Positions 1,739 to 59,383 are shown, numbered from the stretch's first letter. The stretch is 64,000 nt of DNA from Haliotis rufescens (GCF_023055435.1 NW_025963813.1:12524001-12588000), one strand, 5' to 3'. A program made the numbers and translations. Notes: generated by a model from the letters alone, not told the origin.

Positions 1739-2879
1739 GTATAAAGCTAGTTTGGTTTTATTTGAGGTGCAGAAGGGGTGTTCTTGTGAGTGAGTGGTTG
1801 TTGGTGTTGGAAGAAAATGCTGACTGCGCATGTGCAAGGAGCATTACCATGACGCAGTGTCAGCTGATTTTTCACTTCAGAAGGCGCAAATGGTCGAGCC
1901 TGCAACTGGTGACATAAATCCAAACCGACATTGTAAGAAGATTGATCCAGCCAGATCTTATCTTTTCTTTCAAAAAAAAGTCTGGTTGGTGTCGTGTTCA
2001 GAGTTTTAAAAAACTGTTTAGTCTTTCAAAGGATATGTATGTGTCTCAATTGAGTCGATAAACCTTGCTCCCTTGGTACATTCGGCAACATGCGTATTCT
2101 GTTATGACCGAACACTTATCACTGATTATGCTGCGCAATGTGGTGTTATTATAATTTCTTCTGAACAATACATCGCGCGAAACCACGAAATGAAACGTTT
2201 TGTTCGTAAACGCCCTATCCAGAAAAAATCCAGATTAACTGATAAAACTGTTTTCGTTCCATGCATGGCAGTCTAAGCTGGCCTGTAGAACGTCAGGTCA
2301 TTTCCCAATCAAACAGGCTGCAATCAAAACAAGGGGAGGTAAGCACTGTTTCGGCAAAGATATTAACGTTGTCCCAGGGCCAGTTATTTGTTGTGTTTAT
2401 TATGAACGAGCGCAGTATTACATCCACTTGAGTATGTTTATGTATCCATTAGCCATGTTTGGCGACCCAAGAGGAATATTTCAAAGTAACAAAAGGCATG
2501 TTTGAAACCTGTGAAATAATTCTCAGCCTTCCGTTGTTGAGAAATTGTTTCCACAAAAAGAAAGCCGTTGTTCCGGTCATGTTATCGTGGATCTAGAGTG
2601 TGGTGTTTAATGTACAGCAGACCAGAGAGACTGGGAAACAACCTAAGAAAAAAATCAACGGATGGTTGTGTCATTTGTCTAAAGAAACTATACATTTTAT
2701 CGCCGAACGAATTGATGAGGATATAAACCCTATTATACAAAGGAGAAGGGCAAAATACACAAAACTTCGATGCGAAATAATAGCCTGATTACCGTAGAAC
2801 AGTGAGAACGAAGTGTTGAGCTGATTGGACAAGACCAAGGATTGATAACCAGCAAATACACACCAACTATTTCTTCAAA

Positions 2880-5800
2880 ATGCACCACATTACTGTTGTC
2901 GTCTGCTTTTTACTCTTCAAATCATCCATGCCCCTGAGCCAACCTACTGGATGTAATTACAAAGATGGACTGTTCACCTGCGGGTTCAAAACTTCCATTC
3001 CTCTTAATGCCGTTGGGTTCGACCCTCGACCACAAAGGCTAGTTATTAATGACGTGAACGGCCCCATAACGTCATCGTCGTTTACAAACTTCGCTCAAGT
3101 GAACACCTCGACATTTGACCCTAACTACGCATCTTCCTTAACTTTCGTCTGTGTCGCTGGTGGGTCAGCCGTGCTCAGTTTGGATAATTCCTCTTTTGAG
3201 GGCATGGGTTTTTATCAGGACGTCCGGATTATAAATTGCCAGTTCAACAGCGTCCCGCCTGGAGCTTTTACAAACCTTGGCACTGTCAATTTGTTAAGTT
3301 TAGAAGGCGGTACCATCGACAACCTCGACGTAAACGCGTTTCTTGGCGTGAACATCAAGAAAGATACGACCATCCCTAACCCAAGGGGAGAATTCGCTTT
3401 GTCCAACACCAAACTTGCGCAGGGAGGTTTGAGTCGCGGTGTCCTTGACCCCTTCACGGAGGCCAGCGTTCTTACGTTGAACAATTGTCGTATTCGGGTC
3501 ATAGACTTGGCGTTGTTTAGCAAGATGAAGTATCTCACTCGTATCAGCCTGGACAACAATCCTTTCACCTACGTCGGCAACAACATCTTCAGCGGACTGG
3601 AGAGTCTGAGAAGGATCAGTATGGACAACGTGCCATGGAGATGTTCCTGTGCTGCGTTGTGGTTCCTGCAGTTTGCTGCGGACAAGGGGATTGACCTGCA
3701 GGGCGACATGATGTGTTCATTCCCAAAGGAATATGACCGTGAGTAATTTTATTATATATTACACGTTAATAGAACGCAACTGTCTGCTGAAATGCGCTGC
3801 TGTGAATACCTTTGTCAATACGCCTATCCATGACGGTGTTGCTTTTTCTGTAACTAGGTAGTTGAAGGTGTCACTTTCTCCACCATCTGGATTCAGTGCC
3901 CAGTTCACATGGGATGAGATGGGTGAACACCTAGGGTGCAACTATGCACTGGTCCCTTAAGCCCCCTTTACACAGGGCAGCGACCTTTGTGCCACCTTTG
4001 AGCGATCAAAACCTGGCCAGGACGTTCAATGGTCGCCTAAACCCAGAAAATCATGTTTCTATGTAACTGCTCCAGCAGTTGTTCAGCAGTAACTGCTCGA
4101 GTTGTGCAGCGTCTGCAATGAAACACTGCAGATACAAGCCCTCTATTTATAGGCAGGCTGAGTAGACATTACAGGTAGCTCAAAGGAGGCAGAAAATAGG
4201 CAGAAGCATTGCCATGGTGTCTCAAGGATTGCTGTGGTCGCCGAATGGAGTCACGGCGGTCGCCACAGTCATCGTTTAATGCACGCTGTTGGTCGCCCAA
4301 AGGAGGCACAAGGGAGGCAGAAGCATTACCAAGATAGACGGGAAAAATTACCTGGCGGCAATTGGGCGACCAATGTGCCTTCATTCTGCAACAACGGCAA
4401 TGCTTATGCCTCCCTTCTGCCTCCTTTGAGCAACCAACCTCCTCAGCGACCTTTGTGCGACTGTTTTGAACATGTTCAAAAATTCACGTCAACCATGGCG
4501 TCCATGGCGATGTCTGAACCTCCTGTGTACCACCTTGGAACGACCTAGGCAGCCATTCTGCCTCCTTTGAGCCTCCAACGAAAATTTTATGGTCGCACAC
4601 TGGAGGCACGAAGGTCGCCATCCTGTATAAAAGCCCCATTAGGAACCCACCATTTGATATTGTGTGTGTGCGTGCGTGTGTGTGTGGCTGGATTTCAGCG
4701 ACAAAAAATTGTTCCCGAAAACTTTGGAAAAAAATAGATTCAGCATCATATTAGCTCGTGGTTTAACCATCCCTGACCTGCGTCACTTTACTTGCATTCG
4801 CGCGGTGAAACAGGGAATCTTGGTAGCCAAGGGACTTATCTCTACGCGATGTGCTGCTTCTTGTTAGACAACTGGGTGCCGTTGAACAAAGCGATCTTAG
4901 TGCTAAGGTGATCGTAACTCCCATACCTTAACATAGACTTACGACAGTCGTAGCGCTAAGGTTGTTTTGTACAACGGCACCCTGTGCGATCAGTGTCCAT
5001 TTGTGACATAAGGACTATTCTGGCTTAGAAACATTGCCATACCAGATATGATCGTTCGGAACGTCAGATTTCTAAATCAGCAATATTAGCTATCTGTACC
5101 GTAATAATTATATCCTCGCATTACAATGTTCTGTTCTGAAGCATGAATGTAAATAAGTCTCATGTCTGGATTGCTGCAGGGAGACGCATCACAACGTATC
5201 AGACCCAGGTATGCGGGGCGGTGGTGGCTTGTCCTGCTGGGCTAATGCCGAGTGAGTACCCTTATACCTGTACAACAGACCTGTGAAGATCCGGGGTAGA
5301 ATAGGTCTTCAGTAACCCATGCTTGCCGTAAAAGGTGACTATGCTTGTGGTAAGAGGTGACTTACGGGATCGGGTGGTCAGGCTCGCTGACTTGGTTAAT
5401 GCATGTCATCGATTCCAATTGCCTGGAACGATGTTCATGATGTCAATCACCGGATTGTCTGGTCCAGACTCGATTATTTACAGACCGCCGTCATATAGCT
5501 GGAATATTGCTGAGTGCGGCGTTAAACAACAAACCAACCAACCAACCTGTACAACAACATGAGTGATCGGTGTTGTCATTACAGTATCATTGTTAACATC
5601 AACAATACCGAACAGCGCAACGCCTGTAGAGCTATGTTAAGTATGTGTGCGACCGTGTTTGGATTCTGGGCCCCCTTCCACAAAGCGATCGTAGCGCTAC
5701 GACTGTCTATGTCAAATTAATGGAGTTACGGTCGTCTTAGCCCATATATCGCTTTGTGGAACGGCACCCTGGTCAGAATAGACTTCCATTACCCATGTTA

Positions 5801-9077: not shown

Positions 9078-11572
9078 ATGGGTCGGTTGCTACGCAAGAT
9101 AGCAGTGAGAGCCGGGACACAGGTTCTGTCTCCCATACCGGAGTTGCCCGAAGGGTCTCGATCTCCTACACCAGTGAATGGTAAGTTGCTCGAAATATCC
9201 GCAAGGTCCACCAATGGGTGAGTTATCAGGCAATAGAAACACCTATATCATATACAAATAAAAGATTAAAATATATATAAGCATGTGGTCTCAATTTTGA
9301 GATATACGATTCATTACCAGTTAAAATATCTTCATATTTTGTGCTCTTGATATAAACAGCCGTCATCTGTTGATAAAGTGAGATAAAATGCAAGTAAGAT
9401 CATATTTGTTCAAAATCCATCGTTAGTGATGCTCCTGCAACCTTTAGTTTTTTGTTTTATGAATTGGTCATCAGGTTTGCTGCATACTTTTTGCAAAGAA
9501 ACATATTCCAAGTTGTTTCAAACTGCATGTTCTTCATTATAACTACTTCAGTACACGTGTCTAGTTGATGTTATTCTGTAATTAATTCAACCAATCATTG
9601 TTCTGTGTCATGCAGATGCTTTCAACACAAGTCCAAAGAGGCCAGAAAGCCCAAAACTCAGCGAAGAGGAATGGTAGGCTCTGTTGGCAGTTTCAGTATT
9701 GGCAGACAGAACGATCATTAAATGTTTCTTGTCTTTGAAATGGCTACTTTAGTAGTTCTGAAGTAGTTCTAAAGTAGTTCTAAAGTAGTTCTTTAGTAAT
9801 AACTACTTTCTAGTTCTTCAGTAATAAGTAAAATGGGGGTTAAATTATTCTTGTCCCTTACACCGCCCGTCAAGCAATATATGTTAACTTTTTCCACATA
9901 CTTTGTGACCATATTTGTCAACGCATCTGAATTCCAATTCAACATTTCACAAGCGCCATTTGAATTTGAGGAGATGCACCAAACGCAGAATTAACAAAAT
10001 AGTTAATTTAGAATTGCTTTTGATTCTTGTGAACCATCCACGTGAGATCGTTAATTTCGATTGAGTGTGACAAGTCATGTCCAAAACTTTGCAATCAATC
10101 TAGGGTGAGGTCATATAGCCCTCGTCCGGGCAAAGTGTCTCCAATACATCAGTTATTAACTTTAAAATTAATCCTCAGTGTTATCTTACGACTATTCGAT
10201 CTTGTGTAACCCATTAGTTTGACATTTCAAATTTAAAAAATATGTTCGTTCATAAAGAAACAGTGTATTTTCGCTCATATAATGTTAAATTAAAATCTAC
10301 AATTTGTAAAGTCTTGTTTTCTTCATCTCATATTCGGTTGTTAAAAAAATCTGAAGTCCTAGCTTTGTATTTTACATTTTTATATATTGATGATGTCATC
10401 CCTACTTCATTTGTTTCATTGAGCAGCAATCAAACTATAATTAAGACTTGTCGCCTTTTCGCAAACACCTGGTATCATCACTATTTGATAGTGATTCACG
10501 ATATAGTCGGAATCTATCGCTATCGCCTCTGCTTTCACCAGAGATTTCCTATGAATATGGAAAGGGTTTTGTCGCTTATATTTACGTTGCTCATGTGTGC
10601 TGATCATTTATAGTTCACTCTTTTCTTTTACCTAAAATCAGCGATAATTAAGACTGATCTTACGTTGCCCACATGTCTGTTGATTATTAAATGTTTATTC
10701 TTTTCATTGAGCAATAACCAGAAATAATTAAGACTTGTCTTCACGTTGCCAACAAATCTGATGAAAACATCCACGTCTGCTCTTACAGCTTCATGAAGCA
10801 CCTTCAGAGTCTCGCTGCGGACTACAAAAAGGAGATGGAACAGGTAGGAAGACAACTCCGTGTGATGCAGAGAAGAAACGCCCGGATTGAGAAGAACGCC
10901 GAATTCTACCACGTAGAGTACGACAACTACAAGCGGAACTGGGACAAAAACCAGGAGAAGATTCTGGGACTGAAGACGCGTCTGGACAAATACAAGCCAC
11001 TGAAGAAGGTCATTGACAGGTTGCATTCCCTCCAAGATAAAAACAAGCGACTGAGGGCCTCTTATTTCCAGACTGTTCTGGACAACAATTTTCTGAGGAA
11101 AACCTGGAAGAACATGGAAGGGGGAGAGATTGAGGATGAAGAATTTCCGGATGTTGAGAACATGAGAGAGGCAATAGCTCCAAGACCTCCCACAGCTCCC
11201 GACAATGGCCGGGCGGGATCAGCCAGACGACGCCCATACACTGGCAGGTCCAGGGCGGATCGGCCTCATCTGCCGCCTATCACAGAGAACAACAAAACGG
11301 TCACACCTCACAAGCAGACGACAGTTGAATCACATGAGAAGAAACAAAGCAAATCTCCGGTTCATCTGCCACAACTCGGGACAATGGTCCCCACTCCTCC
11401 AACATGTCCACGGAGAAATGCTCCCAGCAGACGACAGAGCAGAATTCCACTGGCCTTACCACCAATCCGTGGTGCGACTTCTGTGGATAGTCTTCGGCTT
11501 CCCCGCCAGGGTGTGCAGGATATTGGTCGCAAGTCTCGGGATCTGCAGGGGACAAGGGTGTCTCGTGATTAA
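9078..11572 (+). CDS. Uncharacterised coiled-coil + Pro/Arg-rich protein, paralog A, 314 aa; coding exons 9078-9180, 9616-9673, 10789-11572
   Basis: TTTTCAG|ATG; G|GTAAG; CAG|AT; TG|GTAGG; CAG|C. Total is 945 nt in frame. The exon structure is conserved in paralog B with mostly synonymous differences. Confidence 0.85.
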
Positions 11573-13268
11573 AGATGGATCGGACTAGTAAACATGGATG
11601 GATGACTTTATAATATACATTTCCTAAATAGATATCGGACATCTGTTGTCTTCATTAATTTTCTGAAATGAGGTTTTAGCACACTAAATTCTCAAGATTA
11701 ATGTAAAAATCCCAATTTACATTTCCATCCATCCTCTATACACCCACCCCCATCGTTCTGCCAACTATCAGGGCTGCTATTGCTCTCGGGGATTAAATGA
11801 CTACCTACAATATGATAATCCCCCATCTCTCCCCAACCAGATGCCAACATCAAAGTGTTGTCTGCTCAGTGCTCACAAAAAGAATGAATTATCCCCCCCC
11901 GCTTGGATCTTACTCCGGCCTTTCCTGCTTGTTGATTATGAAAGCTATCAGTAAAGTCTGAGATTACTTGATTGCTCAAATGAGCATACAGTTTACCAAT
12001 GGTTCAATGTGTGGTGCTTCTGTTTTAGATTCATGTCGCATGTGGGTTTCACACAGCCATATTATAACATGTATATTTTAGACAAAGTTCTTGTCTTTGA
12101 AAGGCATATAGAAGTGATACACTAAGGAAGAGAATTAATGGATGTCAACTTCTTTATCATGAGGAACACAACGTTTCGGAAGTATGCTTTCTCCTTTACG
12201 CCGCTTTTAGCAATACTCCAGCAATATCACGGTGGGGCTCATCTGAAATGGTCTTCAGAAACGCGGGCCAAAGAATGCTTGTAGAATATAGTTTTACATT
12301 TTTCAATGTGCTTCTTGTTTTTATGAACGAATTTCCTTACATAAGCGTTCATAGGAAGTATTGTTGAAAAGCTTTCTGCTATAATTTGTTAAAAATATAT
12401 TTCTTTATTTGAATGTTATAGTTTCGGTATCAAGTTGTTAAATATTTATTTTTATAATACGTTAAAAACATTTTCATCAGACTTTTGTGATTTATTGAAT
12501 GTCCATGCTATTATAGTATATAACGCGTTGTTCAATATTTAAATTGTTGAATAAAAAACCTAAAATAACAAGACGTATTTTCTACCAATTACAGGTATAA
12601 GTTTTTCAATGGAACAAACGCATTGTGGGTTTTCCAGTCAATGTATATTTCTTGGGATATTCATTCCCGCAATGTTTAAACTTTCTTGGCCTGTCTTCAG
12701 ATTAGTTGTGGTCTGCTTTTTATGTATTTATTGCAAATTCAAAATGTGCAACAGCTGATCTTCAGGGCTTGAGAGTCAGTGTCCAGGTTGACTGGACTCA
12801 TGGGTACCTGAACTGGTCCTCAACTGTGGAAGTTTTGGGTGGGGGGGACGTGAGCGAATCCGTTCCATTTGGTAACAAACCGGTTTCACCGAAATGTCTC
12901 GCTTTGTGAATATGGAATCCTCCTGTTTCTAACGGAATATCCGCCTTGATTTATAATGTATCTACGTCTTCCTTGTCGACTGAATCGGGCTTTACGCCAC
13001 ATAGCCTCAAAATGTCTTGATAACAAAGAAAACCTTAATGCTAGCCGCCTAGCTGTGTGATATGTGAAATTCTGCAATCGTTTTCACTGCCCGAGTCCTA
13101 TCTTTGTATTAAGTCCATTGCAGTTTGTGTTACATCATCGTAAATATCATCTTGTTGGAAAGTCACCATCTTTCTCAGAGAGGAAATTCGGACGCGAGTT
13201 TGTTCAATGCTAAGCTAGTTTCAGAACTGAGTTCAACCTTGGGGAGATTCATGTACTACCACATACGA

Positions 13269-21877: not shown

Positions 21878-24277
21878 TCAAAAACCAAAATACGAGGCAT
21901 TGGTGTCTCCTTGGACAGTGTCATTGACCCCTGTAGCTGAGGAACCTGGGACATCGTCTTGGTCAACCGAGGAATGGGAGCTGTTCTGTTCATCATGTTC
22001 ATCATGTTCATCATGTTCATCTTGCTCGTCCTGTTCATCTTGTTCATCTTGTTCGTCCTGGTCTTCACTGTCACTTTTCAGTTTCTTCTTCATCTTCTTT
22101 CTCCCCTTCCTCCCCGGCTTCATCAGATGGCGAAAGGCGGGAATACCTGGCACAGCATTGTATGTGGCCTTCTCTTTCTCCTCCACCATATCAGGGTGGC
22201 GCTTCTTCATGTGCCAGTTCAATGAAGACTTCTGTCGACATCTATAATCACAGAAGTTGCACTGTACTGGCTTTGAATCTGAATGAATTCTCAAATGAAC
22301 ATAGAGGTGTTTCTTGGCCATGAACCCTTTTCCGCACTGTTCGCACTTGTATTTCCTTATTTTGTAATGAGATATGTTCATGTGAATATCAAGTTCAGTC
22401 TTCTTCTTTGATCTAACGTTACAACCTTCGAAAGGGCATGGAAATGACCTTTTCCCAAGATGCACTCTGTCGTAGTGAAGATCAACAAGTCTTGACAACA
22501 CTGACTTGTATTTACAGCCTTCAAACTTGCAGTAGATGTACAACCCAGCATGCTTCTTCATATGGTTTCGGAAAGATGTTTTACTCCCGGAAAGGTAGTT
22601 ACAAATTGGGCACTTGAGGTCTCCTTCTCTTGCAATGTTGGTTATCCCATGAGCCTCTTCCATGTGGTTTCCCGCTGAGTCCCACACTGTGAACGTCATC
22701 CCACAGATGTGGCACACACAGTTGTCAAACCGACTTGCACTGGATTCGTACGGATTGTGCACAGCTTTCACATGCCGCTGTAGTTTAGTAATCAGTGGGG
22801 TACTAAATGTACACCTTGTACAATACAGAACTTCCCCATGAGCAGTTTTGCGATGTTCTCGAAAGTCCCCAATGGTACCAAAGGTCCTACTGCAAACACT
22901 GCATCTGTAAGGGTGATGGATATCCATGTGCGCAACTGCCTTTTCTTTATCAGGGAGAACCTCCTTGCAGTTCTTACACAAATACTCTGTCTCCGACTTC
23001 TCCTCAATGATGAGGCTATACAAAGTCTCAGTATCAAATTCCATGGCACCGATTCTGAAAGTTGATGATGTCTCGATCTCCTTCTTTGCAGGCTTTTCCT
23101 TCACTTCTTTTGGAGTCTTCTCAAAAGTCGGACTTGGTTGTCTGTGTTGCAAGTCCTCATCCTGACCTAAAATGATACCACCTTCAACAGTATCCATGGT
23201 ATCACAAACTGGAATTCCAATGGCTGGTCTAGTGTCAATATGAGTAAACTTTCGGACCAGATCATCGGAAAATGTCACTCTGATCCCGGGGCTGTCCTCT
23301 TCTTCAGAGTCAGTATTCAAAGCACTATTACTGTAGGACTCATGAGACACCTCGGGGATTTTCTCAGTAGTTCCAGCTTGTTCTTCAGAACATCCTTCAC
23401 TTGATGGCCTCCAAGAATTTCTTCCACTTTTCACACTGACTACTTGAGGAGCCATACATGTTTTCTTTTGATCATCAGCACTGAAGTCAAATCTAGAGAC
23501 TGTCGTATGATCAGAGGATGAATCCATCGCACTTATTGACTTTAAATAGTTCTGAAAGATGTTGGTAATTTCATGCTTAGACACAGCTGATGCTAGTTGT
23601 GAAGCTATGGCTGAGGTGTACGGTACTTTCCCATAATAACTTGCAGTGAAGGGGTATTGATCATCACAGAGCATATTGTGGATATCTGCCTGTCTGTTTG
23701 AACCTTCAGTCTGGACTTTATCACAAATACCTTTTGACAATGACATGCCTATAACTGTTTGTGTCACTGTAGGTTGAGCATTGGTCTGGAGAGTTGAGAC
23801 ATTCATAGGGATTGATTGTCCAGGAACCTCTAAAATTATTGGAGGTTGGGAATTTGAGTTTATAACACTCCCAGAGAGTGAAGACTTTGGAACATGGGAG
23901 GTCATTTGCAGACTAGTCCCTTGTGCAGAATTTCTTAACAAAACACTCTTCCCAAAAGCTGTCATTTGCCCACTGGAGTTCAAAAGCAAAATGTTTCCCA
24001 CAGGCTGCTTCTTGACAACAGTGGACATCTTTGGACTTTCAGGTTTGTTCTGAACTGACGGCATGGTCACTGAGAGTGCAGGATCGCCAAACAGACCTGT
24101 TGATTGCTGGATTAATACTTCTGACTGTTTATTGGAATTTCTTGTTTTTTTTATGCTCATCTTTGTGCCCTTATTTGACGAGGGCTTGCTGCTTGTGGGT
24201 GTGACATACCTGTCCTGTGATTGATCAGTAATGTAGTAATCTGCTCCAAATACATTCAGGTCAGTGTCTTTTTCCAT
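21878..24277 (-). CDS. C2H2 zinc-finger protein, 799 aa, 9 fingers; ZFP91/ZNF653/ZNF692/ZNF276-like C-terminal fingers; single coding exon
   Basis: Uninterrupted ORF with nine CxxC/CxxxxC...HxxxH units. The last finger VQCNFCDYRCRQKSSLNWHMKKRH matches the family signature CRQKASLNWHMKKH. It is followed by a basic NLS-like tract and an acidic DEQ/DEH tail. An upstream acceptor (TTTCATTTCAG) lies near 24590. Confidence 0.92.
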   Translation of the reverse strand: MEKDTDLNVFGADYYITDQSQDRYVTPTSSKPSSNKGTKMSIKKTRNSNKQSEVLIQQSTGLFGDPALSVTMPSVQNKPESPKMSTVVKKQPVGNILLLNSSGQMTAFGKSVLLRNSAQGTSLQMTSHVPKSSLSGSVINSNSQPPIILEVPGQSIPMNVSTLQTNAQPTVTQTVIGMSLSKGICDKVQTEGSNRQADIHNMLCDDQYPFTASYYGKVPYTSAIASQLASAVSKHEITNIFQNYLKSISAMDSSSDHTTVSRFDFSADDQKKTCMAPQVVSVKSGRNSWRPSSEGCSEEQAGTTEKIPEVSHESYSNSALNTDSEEEDSPGIRVTFSDDLVRKFTHIDTRPAIGIPVCDTMDTVEGGIILGQDEDLQHRQPSPTFEKTPKEVKEKPAKKEIETSSTFRIGAMEFDTETLYSLIIEEKSETEYLCKNCKEVLPDKEKAVAHMDIHHPYRCSVCSRTFGTIGDFREHRKTAHGEVLYCTRCTFSTPLITKLQRHVKAVHNPYESSASRFDNCVCHICGMTFTVWDSAGNHMEEAHGITNIAREGDLKCPICNYLSGSKTSFRNHMKKHAGLYIYCKFEGCKYKSVLSRLVDLHYDRVHLGKRSFPCPFEGCNVRSKKKTELDIHMNISHYKIRKYKCEQCGKGFMAKKHLYVHLRIHSDSKPVQCNFCDYRCRQKSSLNWHMKKRHPDMVEEKEKATYNAVPGIPAFRHLMKPGRKGRKKMKKKLKSDSEDQDEQDEQDEQDEQDEHDEHDEHDEQNSSHSSVDQDDVPGSSATGVNDTVQGDTNASYFGF

Positions 24278-24648
24278 AGCACAGTAATGAGGACACCAGG
24301 CAACACTATCAAAGTCACATTTTCAAGATAACAACTTACTGTTCTTTATAAATATCATTTCTGGAGACACATACTGGGCATGTGCTTCACACAAAACTGA
24401 CTGATTCATTATTTTCAGAATAAATGCATTTTGTATTAGCTTGGTGCAACCATATTTTCATCAGTATCCTGTATGATGTATTTTCACAAATGGTTGCACA
24501 GTCATTCTGTTTCATTGTTTACCTTTGAACAACAAGGCAAACAATCTCTCACATCACTTGGGCCTGAATATTTGGGCACAGGATATCATCTGAAATGAAA
24601 TGAAAAAAAACAACTTAGAAAATGAACTATCTAAAACCATAAAATAAA

Positions 24649-28164: not shown

Positions 28165-30375
28165 TTGGTATGGTGAAGTGAGGCGAAACGGGATTTAACG
28201 ATGAGTCCAAGACGCATGCGTGCGTGCGTGCTTGAGTGAGTGAGTGAGTGTGCTTGTACTTATGCCGGTTTTTAGTGCTAGCCGAGTGAGTGAGTGTGCT
28301 TGTAGTAGTGCCGGTTTTTAGTGCTAGCCGAGTGAGTGAGTGTGCTTGTACTTATGCCGGTTTTTAGTGCTAGCCGAGTGAGTGAGTGTGCTTGTAGTAG
28401 TGCCGGTTTTTAGTGCTAGCCGAGTGAGTGAGTGTGCTTGTACTTATGCCGGTTTTTAGTGCTAGCCGAGTGAGTGAGTGTGCTTGTACTTATGCCGGTT
28501 TTTAGTGCTAGCCGAGTGAGTGAGTGTGCTTGTAGTAGTGCCGGTTTTTAGTGCTAGCCGAGTGAGTGAGTGTGCTTGTACTTATGCCGGTTTTTAGTGC
28601 TAGCCGAGTGAGTGAGTGTGCTTGTACTTATGCAGGTTTTTAGTGCTAGCCGAGTGAGTGAGTGTGCTTGTAGTAGTGCCGGTTTTTAGTGCTAGCCGAG
28701 TGAGTGAGTGTGCTTGTACTTATGCCGGTTTTTAGTGCTAGCCGAGTGAGTGAGTGTGCTTGTACTTATGCAGGTTTTTAGTGCTAGCCGAGTGAGTGAG
28801 TGTGCTTGTACTTATGCCGGTTTTTAGTGCTAGCCGAGTGAGTGAGTGTGCTTGTAGTAGTGCCGGTTTTTAGTGCTAGCCGAGTGAGTGAGTGTGCTTG
28901 TACTTATGCCGGTTTTTAGTGCTAGCCGAGTGAGTGAGTGTGCTTGTACTTATGCCGGTTTTTAGTGCTAGCCGAGTGAGTGAGTGTGCTTGTAGTAGTG
29001 CCGGTTTTTAGTGCTAGCCGAGTGAGTGAGTGTGCTTGTACTTATGCCGGTTTTTAGTGCTAGCCGAGTGAGTGAGTGTGCTTGTACTTATGCAGGTTTT
29101 TAGTGCTAGCCGAGTGAGTGAGTGTGCTTGTAGTAGTGCCGGTTTTTAGTGCTAGCCGAGTGAGTGAGTGTGCTTGTACTAATGCCGGTTTTTAGTGCTA
29201 GCCGAGTGAGTGAGTGTGCTTGTACTTATGCAGGTTTTTAGTGCTAGCCGAGTGAGTGAGTGTGCTTGTAGTAGTGCCGGTTTTTAGTGCTAGCCGAGTG
29301 AGTGAGTGTGCTTGTACTTATGCCGGTTTTTAGTGCTAGCCGAGTGAGTGAGTGTGCTTGTAGTAGTGCCGGTTTTTAGTGCTATCCGAGTGAGTGAGTG
29401 TGCTTGTAGTAGTGCCGGTTTTTAGTGCTAGCCGAGTGAGTGAGTGTGCTTGTACTTATGCCGGTTTTTAGTGCTAGCCGAGTGAGTGAGTGTGCTTGTA
29501 GTAGTGCCGGTTTTTAGTGCTAGCCGAGTGAGTGAGTGTGCTTGTACTTATGCCGGTTTTTAGTGCTAGCCGAGTGAGTGAGTGTGCTTGTAGTAGTGCC
29601 GGTTTTTAGTGCTAGCCGAGTGAGTGAGTGTGCTTGTAGTAGTGCCGGTTTTTAGTGCTAGCGGAGTGAGTGAGTGTGCTTGTACTTATGCCGGTTTTTA
29701 GTGCTAGCCGAGTGAGTGAGTGTGCTTGTAGTAGTGCCGGTTTTTAGTGCTAGCCGAGTAAGTGAGTGTGCTTGTACTTATGCCGGTTTTTAGTGCTAGC
29801 CGAGTGAGTGAGTGTGCTTGTAGTAGTGCCGGTTTTTAGTGCTAGCCGAGTGAGTGAGTGTGCTTGTAGTAGTGCCGGTTTTTAGTGCTAGCCGAGTGAG
29901 TGAGTGTGCTTGTACTTATGCCGGTTTTTAGTGCTAGCCGAGTGAGTGAGTGTGCTTGTACTTATGCCGGTTTTTAGTGCTAGCCGAGTGAGTGAGTGTG
30001 CTTGTACTTATGCCGGTTTTTAGTGCTAGCTGAGTGAGTGAGTGTGCTTGTAGTAGTGCCGGTTTTTAGTGCTAGCGGAGTGAGTGAGTGTGCTTGTACG
30101 TATGCCGGTTTTTAGTGCTAGCCGAGTGAGTGAGTGTGCTTGTAGTAGTGCCGGTTTTTAGTGCTAGCCCGCTGAGATACAAAGCCGCTCCTTCACATGG
30201 ATACCCTTCTCCGACACAGAAAACTGAATCTGAGCCGACCATTCCTTTTCATGTGAGTTATATGCAGGCAGAATAACAACACGCACCGTCTTTTGGAACG
30301 ACGCGGCCAGGGATTAAACCACCGAACTTCCGCTCGCAGAGGAGACTCTCTATTCACTGGGCCATGGAGGCGGTC
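28165..30375 (-). mobile_element. SINE family D (tRNA head + Meta-domain-like body) split by an internal minisatellite
   Basis: Head and body at 30375-30170 (A/B-box-like; GGTCGGCTC..TATCTCAG..GCTAGCACTA), tail at ~28215-28165 (CTTGGAC..CGTTAAA..TCACC); collinear with the copy at 36390-36605. Confidence 0.75.
28238..30169. repeat. 46-bp minisatellite, about 42 units (GAGTGAGTGAGTGTGCTTGTACTTATGCCGGTTTTTAGTGCTAGCC)
   Basis: Head-to-tail array with two main variants (TACTTATG / TAGTAGTG) and no spacers. Confidence 0.97.
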
Positions 30376-51030: not shown

Positions 51031-52402
51031 AGAACGGTCGTTTGTGTGGGGGTGGATGCGAAGGGGGCGCTTCACATACATTACAATTTAATTACACACA
51101 CCATTTTAACATAGTGTAATTATTACTACTTATATTTCAGGCAACATCGGAGAGGCGTGACGTTCTATAATTATAAATAATAAATTCTACAATAGATGAA
51201 TAAATATATAAAGTAAAACATCACTTCATGTACTTTCAGCTGGGGTTATACTGACTTCATTTAAACTTAGTTCGTAGTGACCGTCGACGTTAGCCTGGAA
51301 TGATGGTGAGGACGACGTCAATGATGATGCATAGATGGGAAGGTGTAACGTGCGAGTATAGTACGCATCCCGATGATGAACTGGGACCGTCCTTCGCGAC
51401 AACAGATATGCATCTACACTTCTCCAATTTCATAGGCTTGGGTTTTATCACCCATAAACAAGGGAGGGTACATTGTAACCTACTTTTATTCATAGATATT
51501 TTACCTTTTACTGTGCTACAAATGAAATAAGCATTCACGTCAGATACCCATGACATTGTCAGTCCGAGTGCTCTTCCGCTTACCTCGCACTGATTTAGTA
51601 CAAATCTTGCACCCGGGATATATATGTCAAAAGAGGGCCGAGTTCTCACCTTGAACAATCCGTTATATAAGTGGATTATTAAAAACAAAGTGTCGTCGAA
51701 TTGTGTCTAGAATGCAATGTTATGTACGGTTAACTACGGTTATAACGAACTCGAAGGCACACAAATAACTAGTTTTAGTTCGATATAACCGCAGTTCGTT
51801 AAAGGCAAATATACAGCATTTATGCAACAAATGGTCGGGACTAGAAAATAAGGTTGTTATATCAGTCAGTTCGTTATAAGCGTGTTCGTTATAAACGTAG
51901 TTTACTGAAGTTGGTTTCCCAGTCTTAATGTATAAGTGCAATAAATCTTCTATCATTCATTACCATATCCTGTCGTCTTAGACTTGAGTCCATAGAATCA
52001 GTATTTAGTTTCAGGATTAACAGATGACAACCAATGTCATTTCTGTTTACGTGATTAAAGGCACAGTTATTGTTGAACAAAAAAAGTTATTTAGAGAGCA
52101 GACGTGATTTCCCATGCACAAAGAGAGATTCGGTATCGTCTGAACACAACTGTGTACCAGATACGATCTTTCTGCATAACACGAGGCTAAGAAATCATAT
52201 CACCACGCGATTACCGAACGAGCCCTGCTCGAGTCACGTTCCAAAGGGCCCCCGTATTGCTAGGAGTTGAAGTATGATCCTCGAGCTGTGGCAGGTCCGT
52301 GACTCGACAAACATATCTGGTTTATTGGACGGAGAGCGTTACCTATCTGGATTGCCGTATCGGGTGAGGGGAGGTGTGTACGCGCTCTCGAGTTCGAACC
52401 TG

Positions 52403-52515
52403 TGACGTCACGTGAGTCACAATTCCGGAAAAATAGAAATCATTGACATTGTTTATCTCGATGCAATTTTGGAAATTGATACGATCTGGGCGCGTCGGTT
52501 CGGGGTATATATGGA
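52403..52515 (+). promoter_or_regulatory. Putative LPMO promoter: overlapping CRE/E-box/AP-1 sites and a TATA-like box
   Basis: TGACGTCACGTGAGTCA at 52403-52419 and TATATAT near 52506, about 140 nt upstream of the ATG. Confidence 0.45.
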
Positions 52516-52645
52516 ACCCATATCCAGTCCGGATCACAATATCTCTACGTGTCCTGAGGAGAATTATCCAGTTTCAAGGCACGCTGAAAGAAACGGTTTC
52601 TCGTAACCCAGACGACAGCTTCACTGCGGCAGACGACATCTCATA

Positions 52646-52843
52646 ATGCGTCCCACTCTCTTCACTCTGGTCGTCTGCGTTTGTCTGATGGCCCTCCCCG
52701 ACGCTCAAGGGCACGGGCGTCTGGTGGAACCCCCCTCCCGCTCCAGTATGTGGCGGTACGGCTTTGACAACCCCACCAACTACAACGATCACGAGCTCTA
52801 CTGCGGAGGATTTCAGGTGAGCTAGATGTCAAATGTACCGTAA

Positions 52844-52899
<56 letters not shown>

Positions 52900-55800
52900 T
52901 TATATCAGGACTCTGTTTTTTCTATATTTAATATCTATACACCTGACGAAATCACTTGTTTATATATATATCGAGGATCGGGTGGTCAGGCTCGCTGACT
53001 TCGTTGATGCATGTCATCGATCCCAATTGCGTGGATCGATGCTCATCAATCACTTGATTGTCTGGTCCAGGCTCGATTATTTACAGACCGCCGTCAAATA
53101 GCTGGAATATTGCTGAATGCGGCGTTAAACAACCAACAAACCAACATATCTTTAGGTTTGTTATATTTAATCTTGGGTCTATTTAGAAATGTAACTCTGC
53201 AGAAACGTCAACTTACCGTCTTGGACAAACTGAATGAGAACTATTTCTGAAAGTCCAGCATATGAATGGGATGGTCCCCTTTACATGCTCCACAATCGTT
53301 GTGTAATCTGAGGCGCCGCAAATCGCTGTGAAGAGTTGAGTCCCTTATGCGTGCCAGGATCCTGATAGTGGGTTCCAATCTTAGATTGATCATTGCTTTG
53401 TCAGCACAATACCTCGGTCTTGACACGCTCTGATATAGTGAGTGAGTATGGTTTTACGCCGCTTTTAGCAATATTCCAGCAATATCACGGCGGGGGACAC
53501 CAGAAATGGGATTCACACATTGTACCCATGTCGGGAATCGAACCCGGGTCTTAGGCGTGACGAGCGAACGCTTAAACCACTAGGCTACCCGACCGCCCCC
53601 GCGGTCGAATCGGCGTTAAACCCGACTTACTCCTTCACTTAAAACCCCCAACACATTCGTAGCAAACATACACAGCATGAAACCAAAGATGTTGTCTGGA
53701 AATGAGACCAAAACTGAAATGACATTTTGACACTTTTGGAACATGTAGTCTGATCAGTCATTAGTACCTCAAATGCTATTGAAGTATAGCCACTTTCATT
53801 TTCACTTAAAAATCACAGAAGTGAGCACGATACGGTTCTATCCAATAGGTTATTATTTCTATTTAGGGAGTCTGTATAACAGGTATTCGGCACTAACGAG
53901 ATTTTCTTATGTAGACTACCTGGAATATTACAATTACACTCATCTTAAAACACCCGAGACTTTCATGAAAACATACATCTGTATATGTCATGGTTGTACT
54001 GTTTTCAGAGACAATGGGATGTGAACGGCGGGAAGTGTGGCGTTTGTGGTGATCCCTGGGACGGAAAACGCGAAAACGAGGCTGGGGGGAAATACGCCAA
54101 TGGAATCATTGCCCGGAAGTACAAACCAGGGGAGACAATCACCATTAACGTGGATCTTACAGCCAATCATTTGGGTAAGTTTAACATTGGCTGCCTGTGG
54201 CCAGCCTTTCTACGAAATACAATGGGCAATACAAATATAGTCACAGTACAAGTAGAGAATGTAATAACAATCTCATTCAAGGTTCTTTAACGTCATTTTC
54301 ACATGTAAATTCTCAATCACATATACCACGTAACTGGTGTAGTATATCAGATTTCTACAGTATCTCCTAGATTTTTTTAGCTTTCTTGGCATATATTATC
54401 AGTCTGTTATGGCATGTTTTTCTGGGTAACATTAAAAGCATATTTCTTTCATTTGGTAGGGTACTTCCAGTTCCGCTTGTGCCCCCACAATAGCCCGCAG
54501 ACTCCAGTTAAACAGGAATGTTTGGACAGACATCTCCTCAGGCACACAGACGGAAGTGACCGCTTCAGTGTCACTACTGCATGTCGGGGAATATACTCAA
54601 TGGCTGTCGTACTTCCGGCGAATGTCACTTGCTCCCAGTGTGTCCTTCAGTGGAGATACAATACAGGTACTATCATGCATCGTCATAAATGTACATACAC
54701 CCATTTTTAGACTTTCCAATCTTGTAAAGAGGGTTACATATATATTGTAATTCAAGGGACTTCATCTCCCACACCAGAGACCATATACCGGTATGTGGTC
54801 ACTACCCACACGAACAGTTTGTCAGCATTTAGTGTTTAGCATAACAGATTCTAGCGGCTCAGTTTTTTCAGGAAACACTAAGAGTAAATGAATGTTGTTT
54901 TACATCGCAGTCACTATTAATCCAGCTACATCTCTCGACGGTTTGTACATGTTCTAGTCTGGTTGACAGCATTAACAACAATACACAACGTCGGAATAGT
55001 TCTTTCTGTGGCGTAACAGCCTTCGTTCCCCGTGAATTTTATCGTAATACATACCTTATATCACTCCCGTCTCACTGGCCTCGTATTCTCGTGGGGATGC
55101 CGGGATATGATAAGTTTTCAGCATCCAATGTTTGTCGTGAATGCATGAATGTACGGGTTGTCAGGCTCGGTGATTTGGTTGATTGCCTGCCATCGTTCCC
55201 CGATGGCGTGGGACGTTGCTCATAATATCAATCACTGGTTTGTCTGGACCAGACGAATTACAGGCCGCTGTCATATGGTTGGAATGCTGATTGCGGCTTT
55301 AAGCGTCAAACGAACATCGCATCGGACAATGTTAAGCATCGGGCAAAAGAAAGTAAACACCCATGTTTGATGGTGGCTAGAAATTAAACCAACAACAAAT
55401 TGTTCTTTGATGATAATGTATTTGATACGGGTATCATAGTTGTGTGTTTGAACCTTACGTTTGCTGTTTCTGTGACTGTTTTCAGGCTAGAAAAGTTTTG
55501 AGAACGTTTGTTATTTTTTGGTCAAATCCAATTTTCAAATTTTCAATTGGCCCAGCAGTTTACATTGCACATGCCTCGTACTTATTACGGGGTGTTGAGA
55601 GTACAATGCCTTGGTGATAGTTACTTCATTGACTCATTTGATTCCAGGTAACTCCTGGGGATGTGATGGCCCAACTTGTTGCGTGGGTTGCGGGCCACAG
55701 GAACAGTTCTATGGCTGCGCGGATGTCGCAATCTCTGCAGACTCCGAAGACCAGACGAAATCGCCAACCTCCACATTCAACGTCCACAGTGCAACGTCAC

Positions 55801-56123
55801 CGTGTCACGTGGCCACGAAACCCGTCGAGCAGACGACATCTGAAGCTCGAAATATCACAGCAGCGGCCAATACCACTACTACCTCCACCGGAACGACAAC
55901 AGTCACTGCATCCCCAACATCAGCTGCGACGTCTAAGACCACCACTAGCGTTGCCGACAGCACAACAGCGGACGATAGCGATGAAAACAGCGGCGACTGT
56001 AAGGCCACGGGGCCTTGGGAAGGGAACCCAAGAATCACTGTCTGGTGTCTTGCCAACTGTCGACGTGGTTACTGTCCTGAATATTATTGTTCAGACGCGT
56101 GTCGCCATCAGACCGAGTATTGA
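52646..56123 (+). CDS. Secreted lytic polysaccharide monooxygenase (AA15-type), 339 aa; exons 52646-52816, 54009-54174, 54460-54666, 55648-56123
   Basis: A 22-aa signal peptide ending AQG precedes mature HGRLVEPPSRSSMWR (His1 at 52712). Motifs NYNDHELYCGG, GKCGVCGDPW, LTANHLG (second His), FRLCP, CSQCVLQWRY, GNSWG and GCGPQEQFYGCADV are present. All junctions are GT-AG with matching phases (0,1,1), total 1020 nt. AATAAA lies near 56263. Confidence 0.95.
53437..53600 (-). mobile_element. SINE family A nested in a decayed family-B SINE (~53300-53635) in LPMO intron 1
   Basis: Family-B body upstream and its GGCGTTAAACCC tail downstream of the family-A copy. Confidence 0.82.
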
Positions 56124-57349
56124 CGAGAACCTTTTTCCTCAACATCGATCAGACAGTTTGCCAGTCACGTTTGCTCAATCATCTTTTGTACACGTTTTGT
56201 CGTCTTTTTTATCATTCCTTGAGATATTATATTTTCTGTTTTTATGTTTATTTTTATATTCTAATAAAAAGCAGTATTTGCTACACTATTGTTTTTGTTC
56301 AGTTTTAATTGTGTTGAAATCAGCATGTTTGGTCAAATCTAAGATCATGGCCAAACACGACAGTTCCTCTTGCCTTGCGTGGGTCACGGTTTATCCTAGC
56401 GCCGCAGATTCCGGGGTAGCCAATCCAGTGATAGACATCTTGAACATCGATCTACGCAAATGGGGTACGATAACATGCATCAACCTAGTCAGCGAGCCTG
56501 ACCACCCGATCCTGTTGGTCACCTCTTAGGATGTAGGATGTAATGTACCATTTCTATACTACAGAAAATTTAAATTTACACTATTTAGGGACCGGTCATT
56601 TATTATAGGGGCGGTGGTTCAGAGGGAATCAAGGGAGGGTCAAGAAAAAAATATAGATTTAATAATAAAATGTACAGTGCTTTTGAATTTTGTCTTTTCA
56701 CGGAAGGTCGCGAAAACATTACAAGGACATGGGGAGGGTCGTCCAAAATATGACACGTATTAGGGGAGGGTCGGGTTTTTTTTAGTACATTAGAGCATCA
56801 GAATCCTCTTTAACAAATTTTTTAACATGTCAGATATGTTCCTTCCTTTCTCAACACCATACTCATGATCGTTGGTTTCACCAAAGTGATAAAGACCTGT
56901 ACCTTTCCTGCCACTGAAATACTGTCCAAAGTGACACACACACGTACTGACTCAATTAAGACAACACACTCAAATATGTTTGACATATTTACACATGAGA
57001 TTTACAACTGACGTAAACGACACGCCCTTTGTCGGTTACCCTGACGCAAGTGCTGGCTCAGCAGAATGAAGAGTCAATATTGATGACAAGTTAACGTTAA
57101 AGTGTTTACCATGATGAACGTTAATAACAACAAACAGTGGATCATACATACCCCTCAGCCCTAAACGTTCAACCGCCGATTCTTATCCGACATGGAAGTA
57201 TTGTAGTGTTCTCAGCGAACTGACTTGTCAGTTTTGAGTGTTTGAAAGTAATACAAGATAATTCCTTTGTTCGTCCAAAAGTCCGAGACGTTCCCATAAT
57301 CACGGTCAAAATGTTTACTTACCTGTTTTTATACTATACTAAAACAGCC

Positions 57350-59383
57350 AGGCTATGGCTATGGTGTGATTTTGATGTTACACTAAGATAACCTGGCTAT
57401 GGTGTGATTGTGATTGTGATGCTACGCTAAGACAACCTGGATATGGTATGATTGTGATGCTACACTAAACAACCTGGCTATGGTGTGATTGTGATTGTGA
57501 TGCTACGCTAAGACAACTTGGCTATGGTGTGATTGTGATGCTACACTCAGACAACCTGGCTATGGTGTGATTGTGATTGTGATGCTACACTAAGACAACC
57601 TGGCTATGGTGTGATTGTGATGCTACACTAAGACAACCTGGCTATGGTGTGATTGTGATGCTACGCTAAGACAACCTGGCTATGGTGTGATTGTGATGCT
57701 ACACTCAGACAACCTGGCTATGGTGTGATTGTGATGCTACGCTAAGACAACCTGGCTATGGTGTGATTGTGATGCTACGCTAAGACAACCTGGCTATGGT
57801 GATTGTGATGCTACGCTAAGACAACCTGGATATGGTGTGATTGTGATGCTACACTCAGACAACCTGGCTATGGTGTGATTGTGATGCTACGCTAAGACAA
57901 CCTGGCTATGGTGTGATTGTGATGCTACACTCAGACAACCTGGCTATGGTGTGATTGTGATTGTGATGCTACACTAAGACAACCTGGCCATGGTGTGATT
58001 GTGATGCTACGCTAAGACAACCTGGCTGTGATTGTGATGCTACACTAAGACAACCTGGATATGGTGTGATTGTGATGCTACGCTAAGACAACCTGGATAT
58101 GGTGTGATTGTGATGCTACGCTAAGACAACCTGGATATGGTGTGATTGTGATGCTACACTCAGACAACCTGGCTATGGTGTGATTGTGATGCTACACTCA
58201 GACAACCTGGCTATGGTGTGATTGTGATGCTACACTAAGACAACTTGGCTATGGTGATTGTGATGCTACGCTAAGACAACCTGGCTATGGTGTGATTGTG
58301 ATGCTACACTAAGACAACCTGGCCATGGTGTGATTGTGATGCTACGCTAAGACAACCTGGCTATGGTGTGATTGTGATGCTACGCTAAGACAACCTGGCT
58401 ATGGTGTGATTGTGATGCTACGCTAAGACAACCTGGCTATGGTGTGATTGTGATGCTACACTAAGACAACCTGGCTATGGTGTGATTGTGATGCTACACT
58501 AAGACAACCTGGCTATGGTGTGATTGTGATGCTACGCTAAGACAACCTGGCTATGGTGTGATTGTGATGCTACACTCAGACAACCTGGCTATGGTGTGAT
58601 TGTGATGCTACACTCAGACAACCTGGATATGGTGTGATTGTGATGCTACACTAAGACAACCTGGCTATGGTGTGATTGTGATGCTATGCTAAGACAACCT
58701 GGATATGGTGTGATTGTGATGCTAGACTAAGACAACCTGGCCATGGTGTGATTGTGATGCTACACTCAGACAACCTGCATGGCTATGGTGATTGTGATGC
58801 TACGCTAAGACAACCTGGATATGGTGTGATTGTGATGCTACACTAAGACAACCTGGATATGGTGTGATTGTGATGCTACGCTAAGACAACCTCGCCATGG
58901 TGTGATTGTGATGCTACGCTAAGACAACCTGGCTATGGTGTGATTGTGATGCTACACTAAGACAACCTGGCTATGGTGTGATTGTGATGCTACACTCAGA
59001 CAACCTGGATATGGTGTGATTGTGATGCTACACTAAGACAACCTGGATATGGTGTGATTGTGATGCTACACTAAGACAACCTGGATATGGTGTGATTGTG
59101 ATGCTACACTAAGACAACCTGGCTATGGTGTGATTGTGATGCTATGCTAAGACAACCTGGATATGGTGTGATTGTGATGCTAGACTAAGACAACCTGGCC
59201 ATGGTGTGATTGTGATGCTACGCTAAGACAACCTGGCTATGGTGTGATTGTGATGCTATGCTAAGACAACCTGGCTATGGTGTGATTGTGATGCTACACT
59301 AAGACAACCTGGATATGGTGTGATTGTGATGCTACGCTAAGACAACCTGGCTATGGTGTGATTGTGATGCTACGCTAAGACAA
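57350..59383. repeat. 38-bp minisatellite, about 53 units (GGCTATGGTGTGATTGTGATGCTACACTAAGACAACCT)
   Basis: Head-to-tail array with point variants and TGATTG slippage. Confidence 0.97.

Follow-up and report, generated by a model that had tools for sequence, protein, structure and literature searches.

We analysed a stretch of 64,000 nucleotides (nt) from the abalone Haliotis rufescens (GCF_023055435.1 NW_025963813.1:12524001-12588000), hereafter called the window. Between positions 52646 and 56123 it carries a gene for a secreted lytic polysaccharide monooxygenase (LPMO) of family AA15 with an intact His-brace, whose secretion and copper site are predicted from the sequence. The gene is intact, spliced and already modelled in RefSeq, though it is not named as an LPMO there.

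Joining the four exons given in Table 1 yields 1020 nt with an open frame of 339 amino acids (aa) that ends with a TGA stop (56121-56123), and all three introns have GT..AG borders. The translation agrees with RefSeq XP_046362101.2 in 339 of 339 residues; that entry (Haliotis rufescens LOC124139119) is annotated as 'uncharacterized protein'. The original prediction for this locus, in which four spliced exons encode a signal peptide followed by His1, an A-N-H and a Q-E-Q-F motif, is borne out by these joins, the frame and the RefSeq identity. It would have been refuted by transcripts that do not join these exons, and the junctions were found in contigs of four public runs from four studies. The RNA label of these runs is a guess, and their contigs skip the introns at the predicted positions (intron 1 in 4/4 runs, intron 2 in 4/4 and intron 3 in 3/4). 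A single contig spans exons 1-3 in run X1, and likewise in run X2. The contigs differ from the window at scattered letters and are evidence on junctions, not on level or tissue. Together with the RefSeq identity, the intron-skipping contigs rule out a pseudogene or mis-joined exons.

The orthologue of H. cracherodii (P0001), which served as the query for homology searches and folding, is identical in 327 of 339 residues and in 68 of 68 within exon 3. Two of the 12 differences fall into the catalytic domain and none affects a catalytic or second-sphere residue. A tblastn search with four Haliotis proteins revealed this gene as the only AA15 gene within the window.

The exon encoding His1 had been reported as absent from the open reading frame (ORF) track. 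Its frame has 72 codons from stop to stop, and 59 from the ATG to an in-frame TAG in intron 1; from stop to stop, the frames of the other exons span 113, 109 and 174 codons. A length cut-off, which we infer for the track, would drop so short a frame. The absence is thus explained, as a technical artefact rather than as a feature with biological meaning.

AA15 domain and active site residues

Residues 1-22 are hydrophobic in their core, with Kyte-Doolittle means over nine residues that reach 3.2, and terminate in A-Q-G, which is followed by His23, the His1 of the predicted mature protein. In mature numbering the residues considered here are Tyr24, A87-N88-H89, Trp163 and Q177-E178-Q179-F180. 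A phmmer search of the PDB sequences with P0001 revealed a sole match at E<=1, namely TdAA15A from Thermobia domestica (PDB: 5MSZ; E 7.9e-58; residues 23-211 aligned with 1-193). His1, the second His and the Glu two positions before the axial residue line up in both proteins, and 10/10 cysteines of TdAA15A face a cysteine. E178-Q179-F180 is aligned with E-E-Y184, which confirms the earlier reading of an E-x-F motif with Phe180 equivalent to Tyr184 of TdAA15A, and Trp163 is found opposite Tyr166.

The catalytic domain contains three cysteines beyond the ten of TdAA15A. These are Cys132 and the adjacent pair Cys170-Cys171 in a loop near the substrate face (mature numbering; encoded within 54460-54666 and 55648-55710). 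Of these, the H. rubra orthologue has the pair but not Cys132.

An AlphaFold2 model of P0001, built from an alignment of 72 sequences, is confident over the catalytic domain (predicted local distance difference test (pLDDT) mostly >85) and the C-terminal module, with a disordered linker (pLDDT <50). Foldseek identified 5MSZ as the top match of this model (E 2.8e-26, template modelling (TM) score 0.93, root mean square deviation 1.7 A, 48% identity), whereas structures of AA13, AA10, AA11, AA16 and AA9 enzymes followed far below with 11-21% identity. The Pfam family LPMO_10, which catches both AA10 and AA15 proteins, matched with 79.5 bits against a cut-off of 23, and the orthologue cluster P0001 has a precomputed PF03067 match. 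The assignment to AA15 made in the original prediction is therefore well founded in the E value, the TM score and the residue set shared with 5MSZ. Bacterial AA10 LPMOs (CBP21, EfCBM33A) resemble the abalone protein in the His-brace, the axial Phe, the apical Ala and the Pfam LPMO_10 domain; however, they are only 11-21% identical and structurally match less well than 5MSZ. The spliceosomal introns, the animal relatives and these weak AA10 matches rule out a bacterial AA10 or a recent horizontal transfer.

TdAA15A (PMC5823890) shares with the abalone protein its fold, the His pair (His1/His91), Ala89, the Glu located two positions ahead of the axial one, Tyr24 and ten cysteines. It differs in that it has Tyr166 and Tyr184 where the abalone protein has Trp163 and Phe180, it lacks a linker and a module, and it is a gut enzyme active on cellulose and chitin.

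To analyse how common the axial Phe is, we used the best 120 of 978 homologues found at E<=0.001, which together with added orthologues gave 131 proteins; drawn from the top of the similarity ranking, this set leans towards the query. The axial position is Phe in 124 of them, Tyr in one and a gap or another letter in six, mostly because the sequence ends or diverges before the motif. The second brace position is His in 131/131, and H1, H89, E178 and F180 occur together in 120/131. Among the matches listed, 72 are named molluscan proteins (35 taxon labels taken from the match tables, four of them Haliotis species), of which 71 have the axial Phe and 51 the C-terminal module. The same state is found in filter-feeding bivalves, a cephalopod, annelids and spiders. 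Trp and Phe occupy the two positions in all insect LPMO15-1 proteins (PMC9156745), and Tyr is typical of the expansion in Thermobia and Lepisma (PMC5823890). The counts for the homologues listed rule out that the axial Phe is unusual. The rarity implied for it by the original prediction does not hold, since Phe is the majority state in close homologues and universal in insect LPMO15-1. Nor are AA15 proteins rare findings in molluscs, as had also been implied, because molluscs were named among the AA15 holders already in 2018 (PMC5823890). As the axial Phe is usual among its mollusc relatives, the finding is in this respect ordinary.

A FastTree phylogeny built from the catalytic domains of 94 of the 95 named homologues (the remaining one being too short; no insect sequence with the repeat was in the set) places the gene with Haliotis P0002 and P0017 (support 0.94) among molluscan proteins and apart from P0006 and P0089.

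Table 1. Positions of the parts of the AA15 gene in the window
Feature	Position	Strand	Description
5' untranslated leader	52300-52645, extends further upstream	+	X1 contig 52300-52810 continuing into exons 2 and 3; X5 contig 52300-52813
Exon 1	52646-52816	+	Predicted signal peptide of 22 aa; His1 52712-52714; Tyr24 52781-52783; phase-0 donor; junction in 4/4 runs
Intron 1	52817-54008	+	1192 nt, GT..AG; TG microsatellite and interspersed repeats
Exon 2	54009-54174	+	Ala87 54162-54164; second brace His89 54168-54170; phase-1 donor; junction in 4/4 runs
Intron 2	54175-54459	+	285 nt, GT..AG
Exon 3	54460-54666	+	Core beta-sandwich strands of the AA15 domain
Intron 3	54667-55647	+	981 nt, GT..AG; junction in 3/4 runs
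Exon 4, coding part	55648-56123	+	Trp163 55656-55658; Glu178 55701-55703; axial Phe180 55707-55709; Ser/Thr-rich linker; six-Cys module; stop
Six-Cys C-terminal module	55998-56102	+	C-X15-C-X3-C-X4-C-X4-C-X3-C; putative chitin-binding; without Pfam family
3' untranslated region	56124-56288	+	AATAAA at 56263; X5 contig extends to 56288

Linker and six-cysteine module

The catalytic domain is followed by a linker of 86 residues (44% Ser and Thr) and a module of 35 residues with six cysteines. Neither had been described in the original prediction. The cysteine spacing of the module is 15-3-4-4-3, the commonest spacing in homologues 15-3-4-4-1, and the pattern matches 79 of the 131 homologues listed. 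A Pfam search with the translated segment 55986-56120 revealed no family at E<=3, including CBM14 / peritrophin-A.

A comparable tail is known from the insect group I enzymes OfLPMO15-1, TcLPMO15-1 and LmLPMO15-1 (PMC9156745, PMC12955341). These proteins of 333-343 aa resemble the abalone protein in having a signal peptide, an AA15 domain with H, Y, A, H, W and F at the corresponding positions, a linker and a six-Cys C-terminal repeat. Their tail consists of two repeats C-X15-C-X3-C-X6-9-C-X4-C-X1-C and is unrelated to CBM14 (PMC9156745). By eye, alignment rows of insect LPMO15-1 in the supplement of PMC12955341 display a W-C-x3-C and a C-P pattern as in the module; a text search for motifs in the supplements of PMC9156745, one of which consists of pictures, found none. 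A six-Cys module, X473, is also present in oomycetes (PMC8393829).

A phmmer search with the module against 1.84 billion representative sequences detected 85 matches, of which 76 contain the motif; the other nine include repeat proteins that look spurious. Among the motif carriers, 33 have an AA15 sequence (by our own profile; 13 by Pfam) and six a GH18 sequence (three by Pfam and three by a C-terminal motif). At E 1e-4, none of the 85 sequences matched a cellulase, laminarinase or alginate lyase family of Pfam. A word-index search with the module alone returned the orthologue only, and the ESM Atlas gave no usable match. For a model of the module of 42 residues (single-sequence, mean pLDDT 80), neither Foldseek nor VIA-align found a fold match in the PDB, which does not show a new fold because the domain is so small.

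The module occurs also in small secreted-looking proteins that consist of it alone (e.g. P0139, P0155, P0213), in tandem with up to 21 copies (P0132, 1459 aa) and on a trypsin (P0208).

The association with its partner domains points to chitin as the ligand of the module. We lean towards the view that the six-Cys tail represents a family of chitin-binding modules that has neither a Pfam entry nor a solved structure to match it, and that recurs in AA15 LPMOs, in GH18 chitinases and in arrays with as many as 21 copies.

Substrate and site of action

From its residues and domains, we consider it likely that this secreted AA15 LPMO nicks crystalline chitin of the animal's own body and thereby aids its turnover by chitinases. 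Transcript contigs join the exons, and the encoded protein possesses His1, His89, Ala87, Glu178, Phe180, Tyr24, Trp163 and the ten cysteines of TdAA15A. Signal peptidase would expose His1, given the A-x-G|H pattern and the start of the 5MSZ alignment at residue 23. As known for the family, His1 (with its amine and ring) and His89 would hold one copper, which after reduction would use O2 or H2O2 to oxidise a glycosidic bond at its C1 on the surface of the crystal and so produce aldonic-acid ends. The flexible and probably O-glycosylated Ser/Thr linker may tether the six-Cys module, which would anchor the enzyme on chitin. Its substrate would be endogenous beta-chitin of the radula, the gut lining or a shell-associated matrix, cut together with GH18 chitinases in the way of insect LPMO15-1.

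Three AA15 enzymes with an axial Phe have been described in this respect. OfLPMO15-1 oxidises alpha- and beta-chitin but not cellulose and shows synergy with a chitinase (PMC9156745). TdAA15B acts on chitin only (PMC5823890), and AaAA15A from Aphanomyces astaci, with Phe187, is described as chitin-specific (PMC8393829). The latter two resemble the abalone protein in family, axial Phe and presumed specificity, whereas TdAA15B consists of the catalytic domain only (PMC5823890) and AaAA15A comes from an oomycete and carries an X474 module (PMC8393829). Because the three Phe-axial AA15s in these papers are described as chitin-specific, a role on the animal's own chitin is likely and algal digestion unlikely.

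Abalone graze algae, and a digestive LPMO might open cell-wall polysaccharides of seaweed (cellulose and mixed glucans), comparable to the action of the firebrat enzyme TdAA15A on cellulose. We regard this as very doubtful. AA15 enzymes have been co-opted for cellulose digestion in Thermobia, some carry a CBM1 (PMC5823890), and the axial residue may be an imperfect predictor of the substrate. However, the cellulose-active TdAA15A has the two tyrosines where the abalone protein has Trp and Phe, and the partners of the module include none of the cellulases, laminarinases or alginate lyases looked for. The Phe-axial state does not track an algal diet either, since it is shared by filter-feeding bivalves, a cephalopod, annelids and spiders. 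The original prediction had offered both algal digestion and the remodelling of radula or shell chitin. The first is poorly supported by these data, whereas the second is the better supported of the two through the Phe-axial enzymes and the GH18 partners of the module.

With regard to the site of action, data at the level of the family point to hard parts that contain chitin. The shell protein list of Gigantopelta aegis, obtained by liquid chromatography with tandem mass spectrometry (LC-MS/MS), includes two PF03067 proteins that match LUSP-14 of Lottia (PMC11871041; PMC4094399). In a cell type of the oyster mantle, chitin synthase is expressed along with two 'chitin-binding type-4' genes (bioRxiv 10.64898/2026.05.15.723513). 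The shell of H. laevigata contains at least three AA15-like proteins, CLC_1125, idb_39663 and CLC_18633, which in the passages of PMC6003135 considered here are not named LPMO by the authors; CLC_1125 has 968 aa and up to 27 peptides in nacre (PMC6003135). The Q-E-Q-F peptide of idb_39663 is found in eight nacre and prism peptide tables of H. laevigata (PMC6003135 supplements), so that a Phe-axial paralogue is physically present in abalone shell. These shell-matrix proteins (LUSP-14, CLC_1125, idb_39663, G. aegis ctg737-6.62-1) have the same Pfam domain as the protein studied here, and idb_39663 the same Q-E-Q-F; by length and flanking sequence they are paralogues, and they were found in shell whereas the motifs of this gene were not.

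A matrix protein that keeps the LPMO fold and binds chitin or copper with weak catalysis or none would fit the way in which shell proteomes list mollusc PF03067 proteins, just as chitin-binding (PMC11871041, PMC6003135, PMC4094399). Inactive members appear to exist, as the peptide window of CLC_18633 (by eye; PMC6003135) has no histidine at the second brace position. For the gene in the window, such a function seems quite improbable, as every catalytic and second-sphere residue is kept, H1, H89, E178 and F180 recur together in most homologues listed, and the 12 differences from H. cracherodii spare all these residues.

The LPMO could also be active on chitin of foreign origin, from grazed small crustaceans, diatom fibres or fungi, or from epibionts and pathogens in mucus. 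In agreement with this, the protein is predicted to be secreted, its linker is mucin-like and the orthologue in H. rubra bears the label 'mucin-5AC-like'. The abalone shell proteome yielded no peptide of this gene in the 24 of its 27 supplementary files that were searched (PMC6003135), and several Haliotis paralogues, which lie apart in the tree (P0001/P0002, P0017, P0006, P0089), could divide tasks. In contrast, the insect enzymes that share these residues and the module are expressed in tissue that forms cuticle and not in the midgut (PMC9156745). Endogenous AA15s of shipworms were not detected in the digestive proteome as reported in PMC6767633; its authors favour remodelling of endogenous chitin and state that the role of these proteins is still to be determined. 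We consider foreign chitin an unlikely target.

For an enzyme acting on the animal's own chitin, the radula or the gut lining may be the site. The PF03067 term was absent from one searched file of a radula transcriptome supplement and from the main text of a land-snail shell paper.

Several observations weigh against this role on own chitin. The link between axial Phe and chitin is based on three enzymes (TdAA15B, OfLPMO15-1, AaAA15A). Insect LPMO15-1 proteins have two repeats with X6-9 and X1 spacings, the abalone protein one repeat with X4 and X3 (PMC9156745, PMC12955341). The insect proteins function in moulting, which abalone lack, and the likeness is one of residues and tail type. The deep nodes of the tree, on which orthology with the arthropod groups would depend, are poorly supported. 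Of the 76 carriers of the module motif, 37 have neither AA15 nor GH18; these comprise fragments, proteins made up of the module alone, arrays with as many as 21 copies and a single fusion to a trypsin; chitin binding by the module is putative. Activity, copper binding and tissue of the abalone protein are likewise predicted. Regarding the shell, five short motifs that the H. rufescens protein has in common with its H. rubra orthologue had no match in the supplementary files searched (24 of 27) for the shell proteome of H. laevigata, in which paralogues were present, and the residues flanking the Q-E-Q-F peptide of idb_39663 differ from those of this gene, which counts against a shell role. The missing motifs suggest weakly that this paralogue does not belong to the shell matrix, as the result depends on the database used by the authors and on species differences.

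Other features of the window and significance

Outside the gene, the window contains an inverted duplication of 1000 bp (10644-11643 and 33138-32139, 97.7% identical), each copy with a 284-codon open frame without significant Pfam match. This is probably a recent inverted gene duplication. It is flanked by a second, older-looking pair (9516-9726 and 33596-33381). Two tandem arrays were detected, one at 28238-30169 (46 bp x 42 copies, 94% match) and one at 57356-59383 (38 bp x 53 copies, 91% match), the latter 1.2 kb downstream of the LPMO stop. An 814-codon open frame on the minus strand (21878-24322) encodes several C2H2 zinc fingers and, near its end, an acidic D-E-(Q/H) repeat. On the plus strand, a 308-codon open frame (2820-3746) starts with a signal-like segment and encodes leucine-rich repeats (LRR_8, E 2e-11). 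Introns 1 and 3 and the region downstream of the gene contain short interspersed repeats (52975-53140, 53437-53599, 55200-55300, 56380-56530) to which thousands of contigs map; these are likely abalone short interspersed nuclear elements (SINEs).

RefSeq contains the gene model, molluscs are known to have AA15 proteins, and residue state and tail type have been described for insects. The protein is thus a further, uncharacterised AA15 LPMO and the finding an ordinary one. In the literature searched, outside of which most subscription journals lie, neither a mollusc AA15 with biochemical characterisation nor a paper on LOC124139119 was found. For now, the analysis does little more than provide a function label for an unnamed RefSeq protein of abalone, whose remaining value is that of a clean test case; the small six-Cys module, a candidate for a new family of carbohydrate-binding modules, is well suited to study. 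There is little probability that a grazing mollusc here secretes its own LPMO into the gut to break seaweed walls oxidatively; if true, this would overturn the rule that Phe-axial enzymes act on chitin only and provide the first marine-animal LPMO active on algal polysaccharides. If the abalone enzyme oxidises chitin, LPMO-assisted chitin turnover would extend from moulting arthropods to the radula, gut lining or shell of a non-moulting animal.

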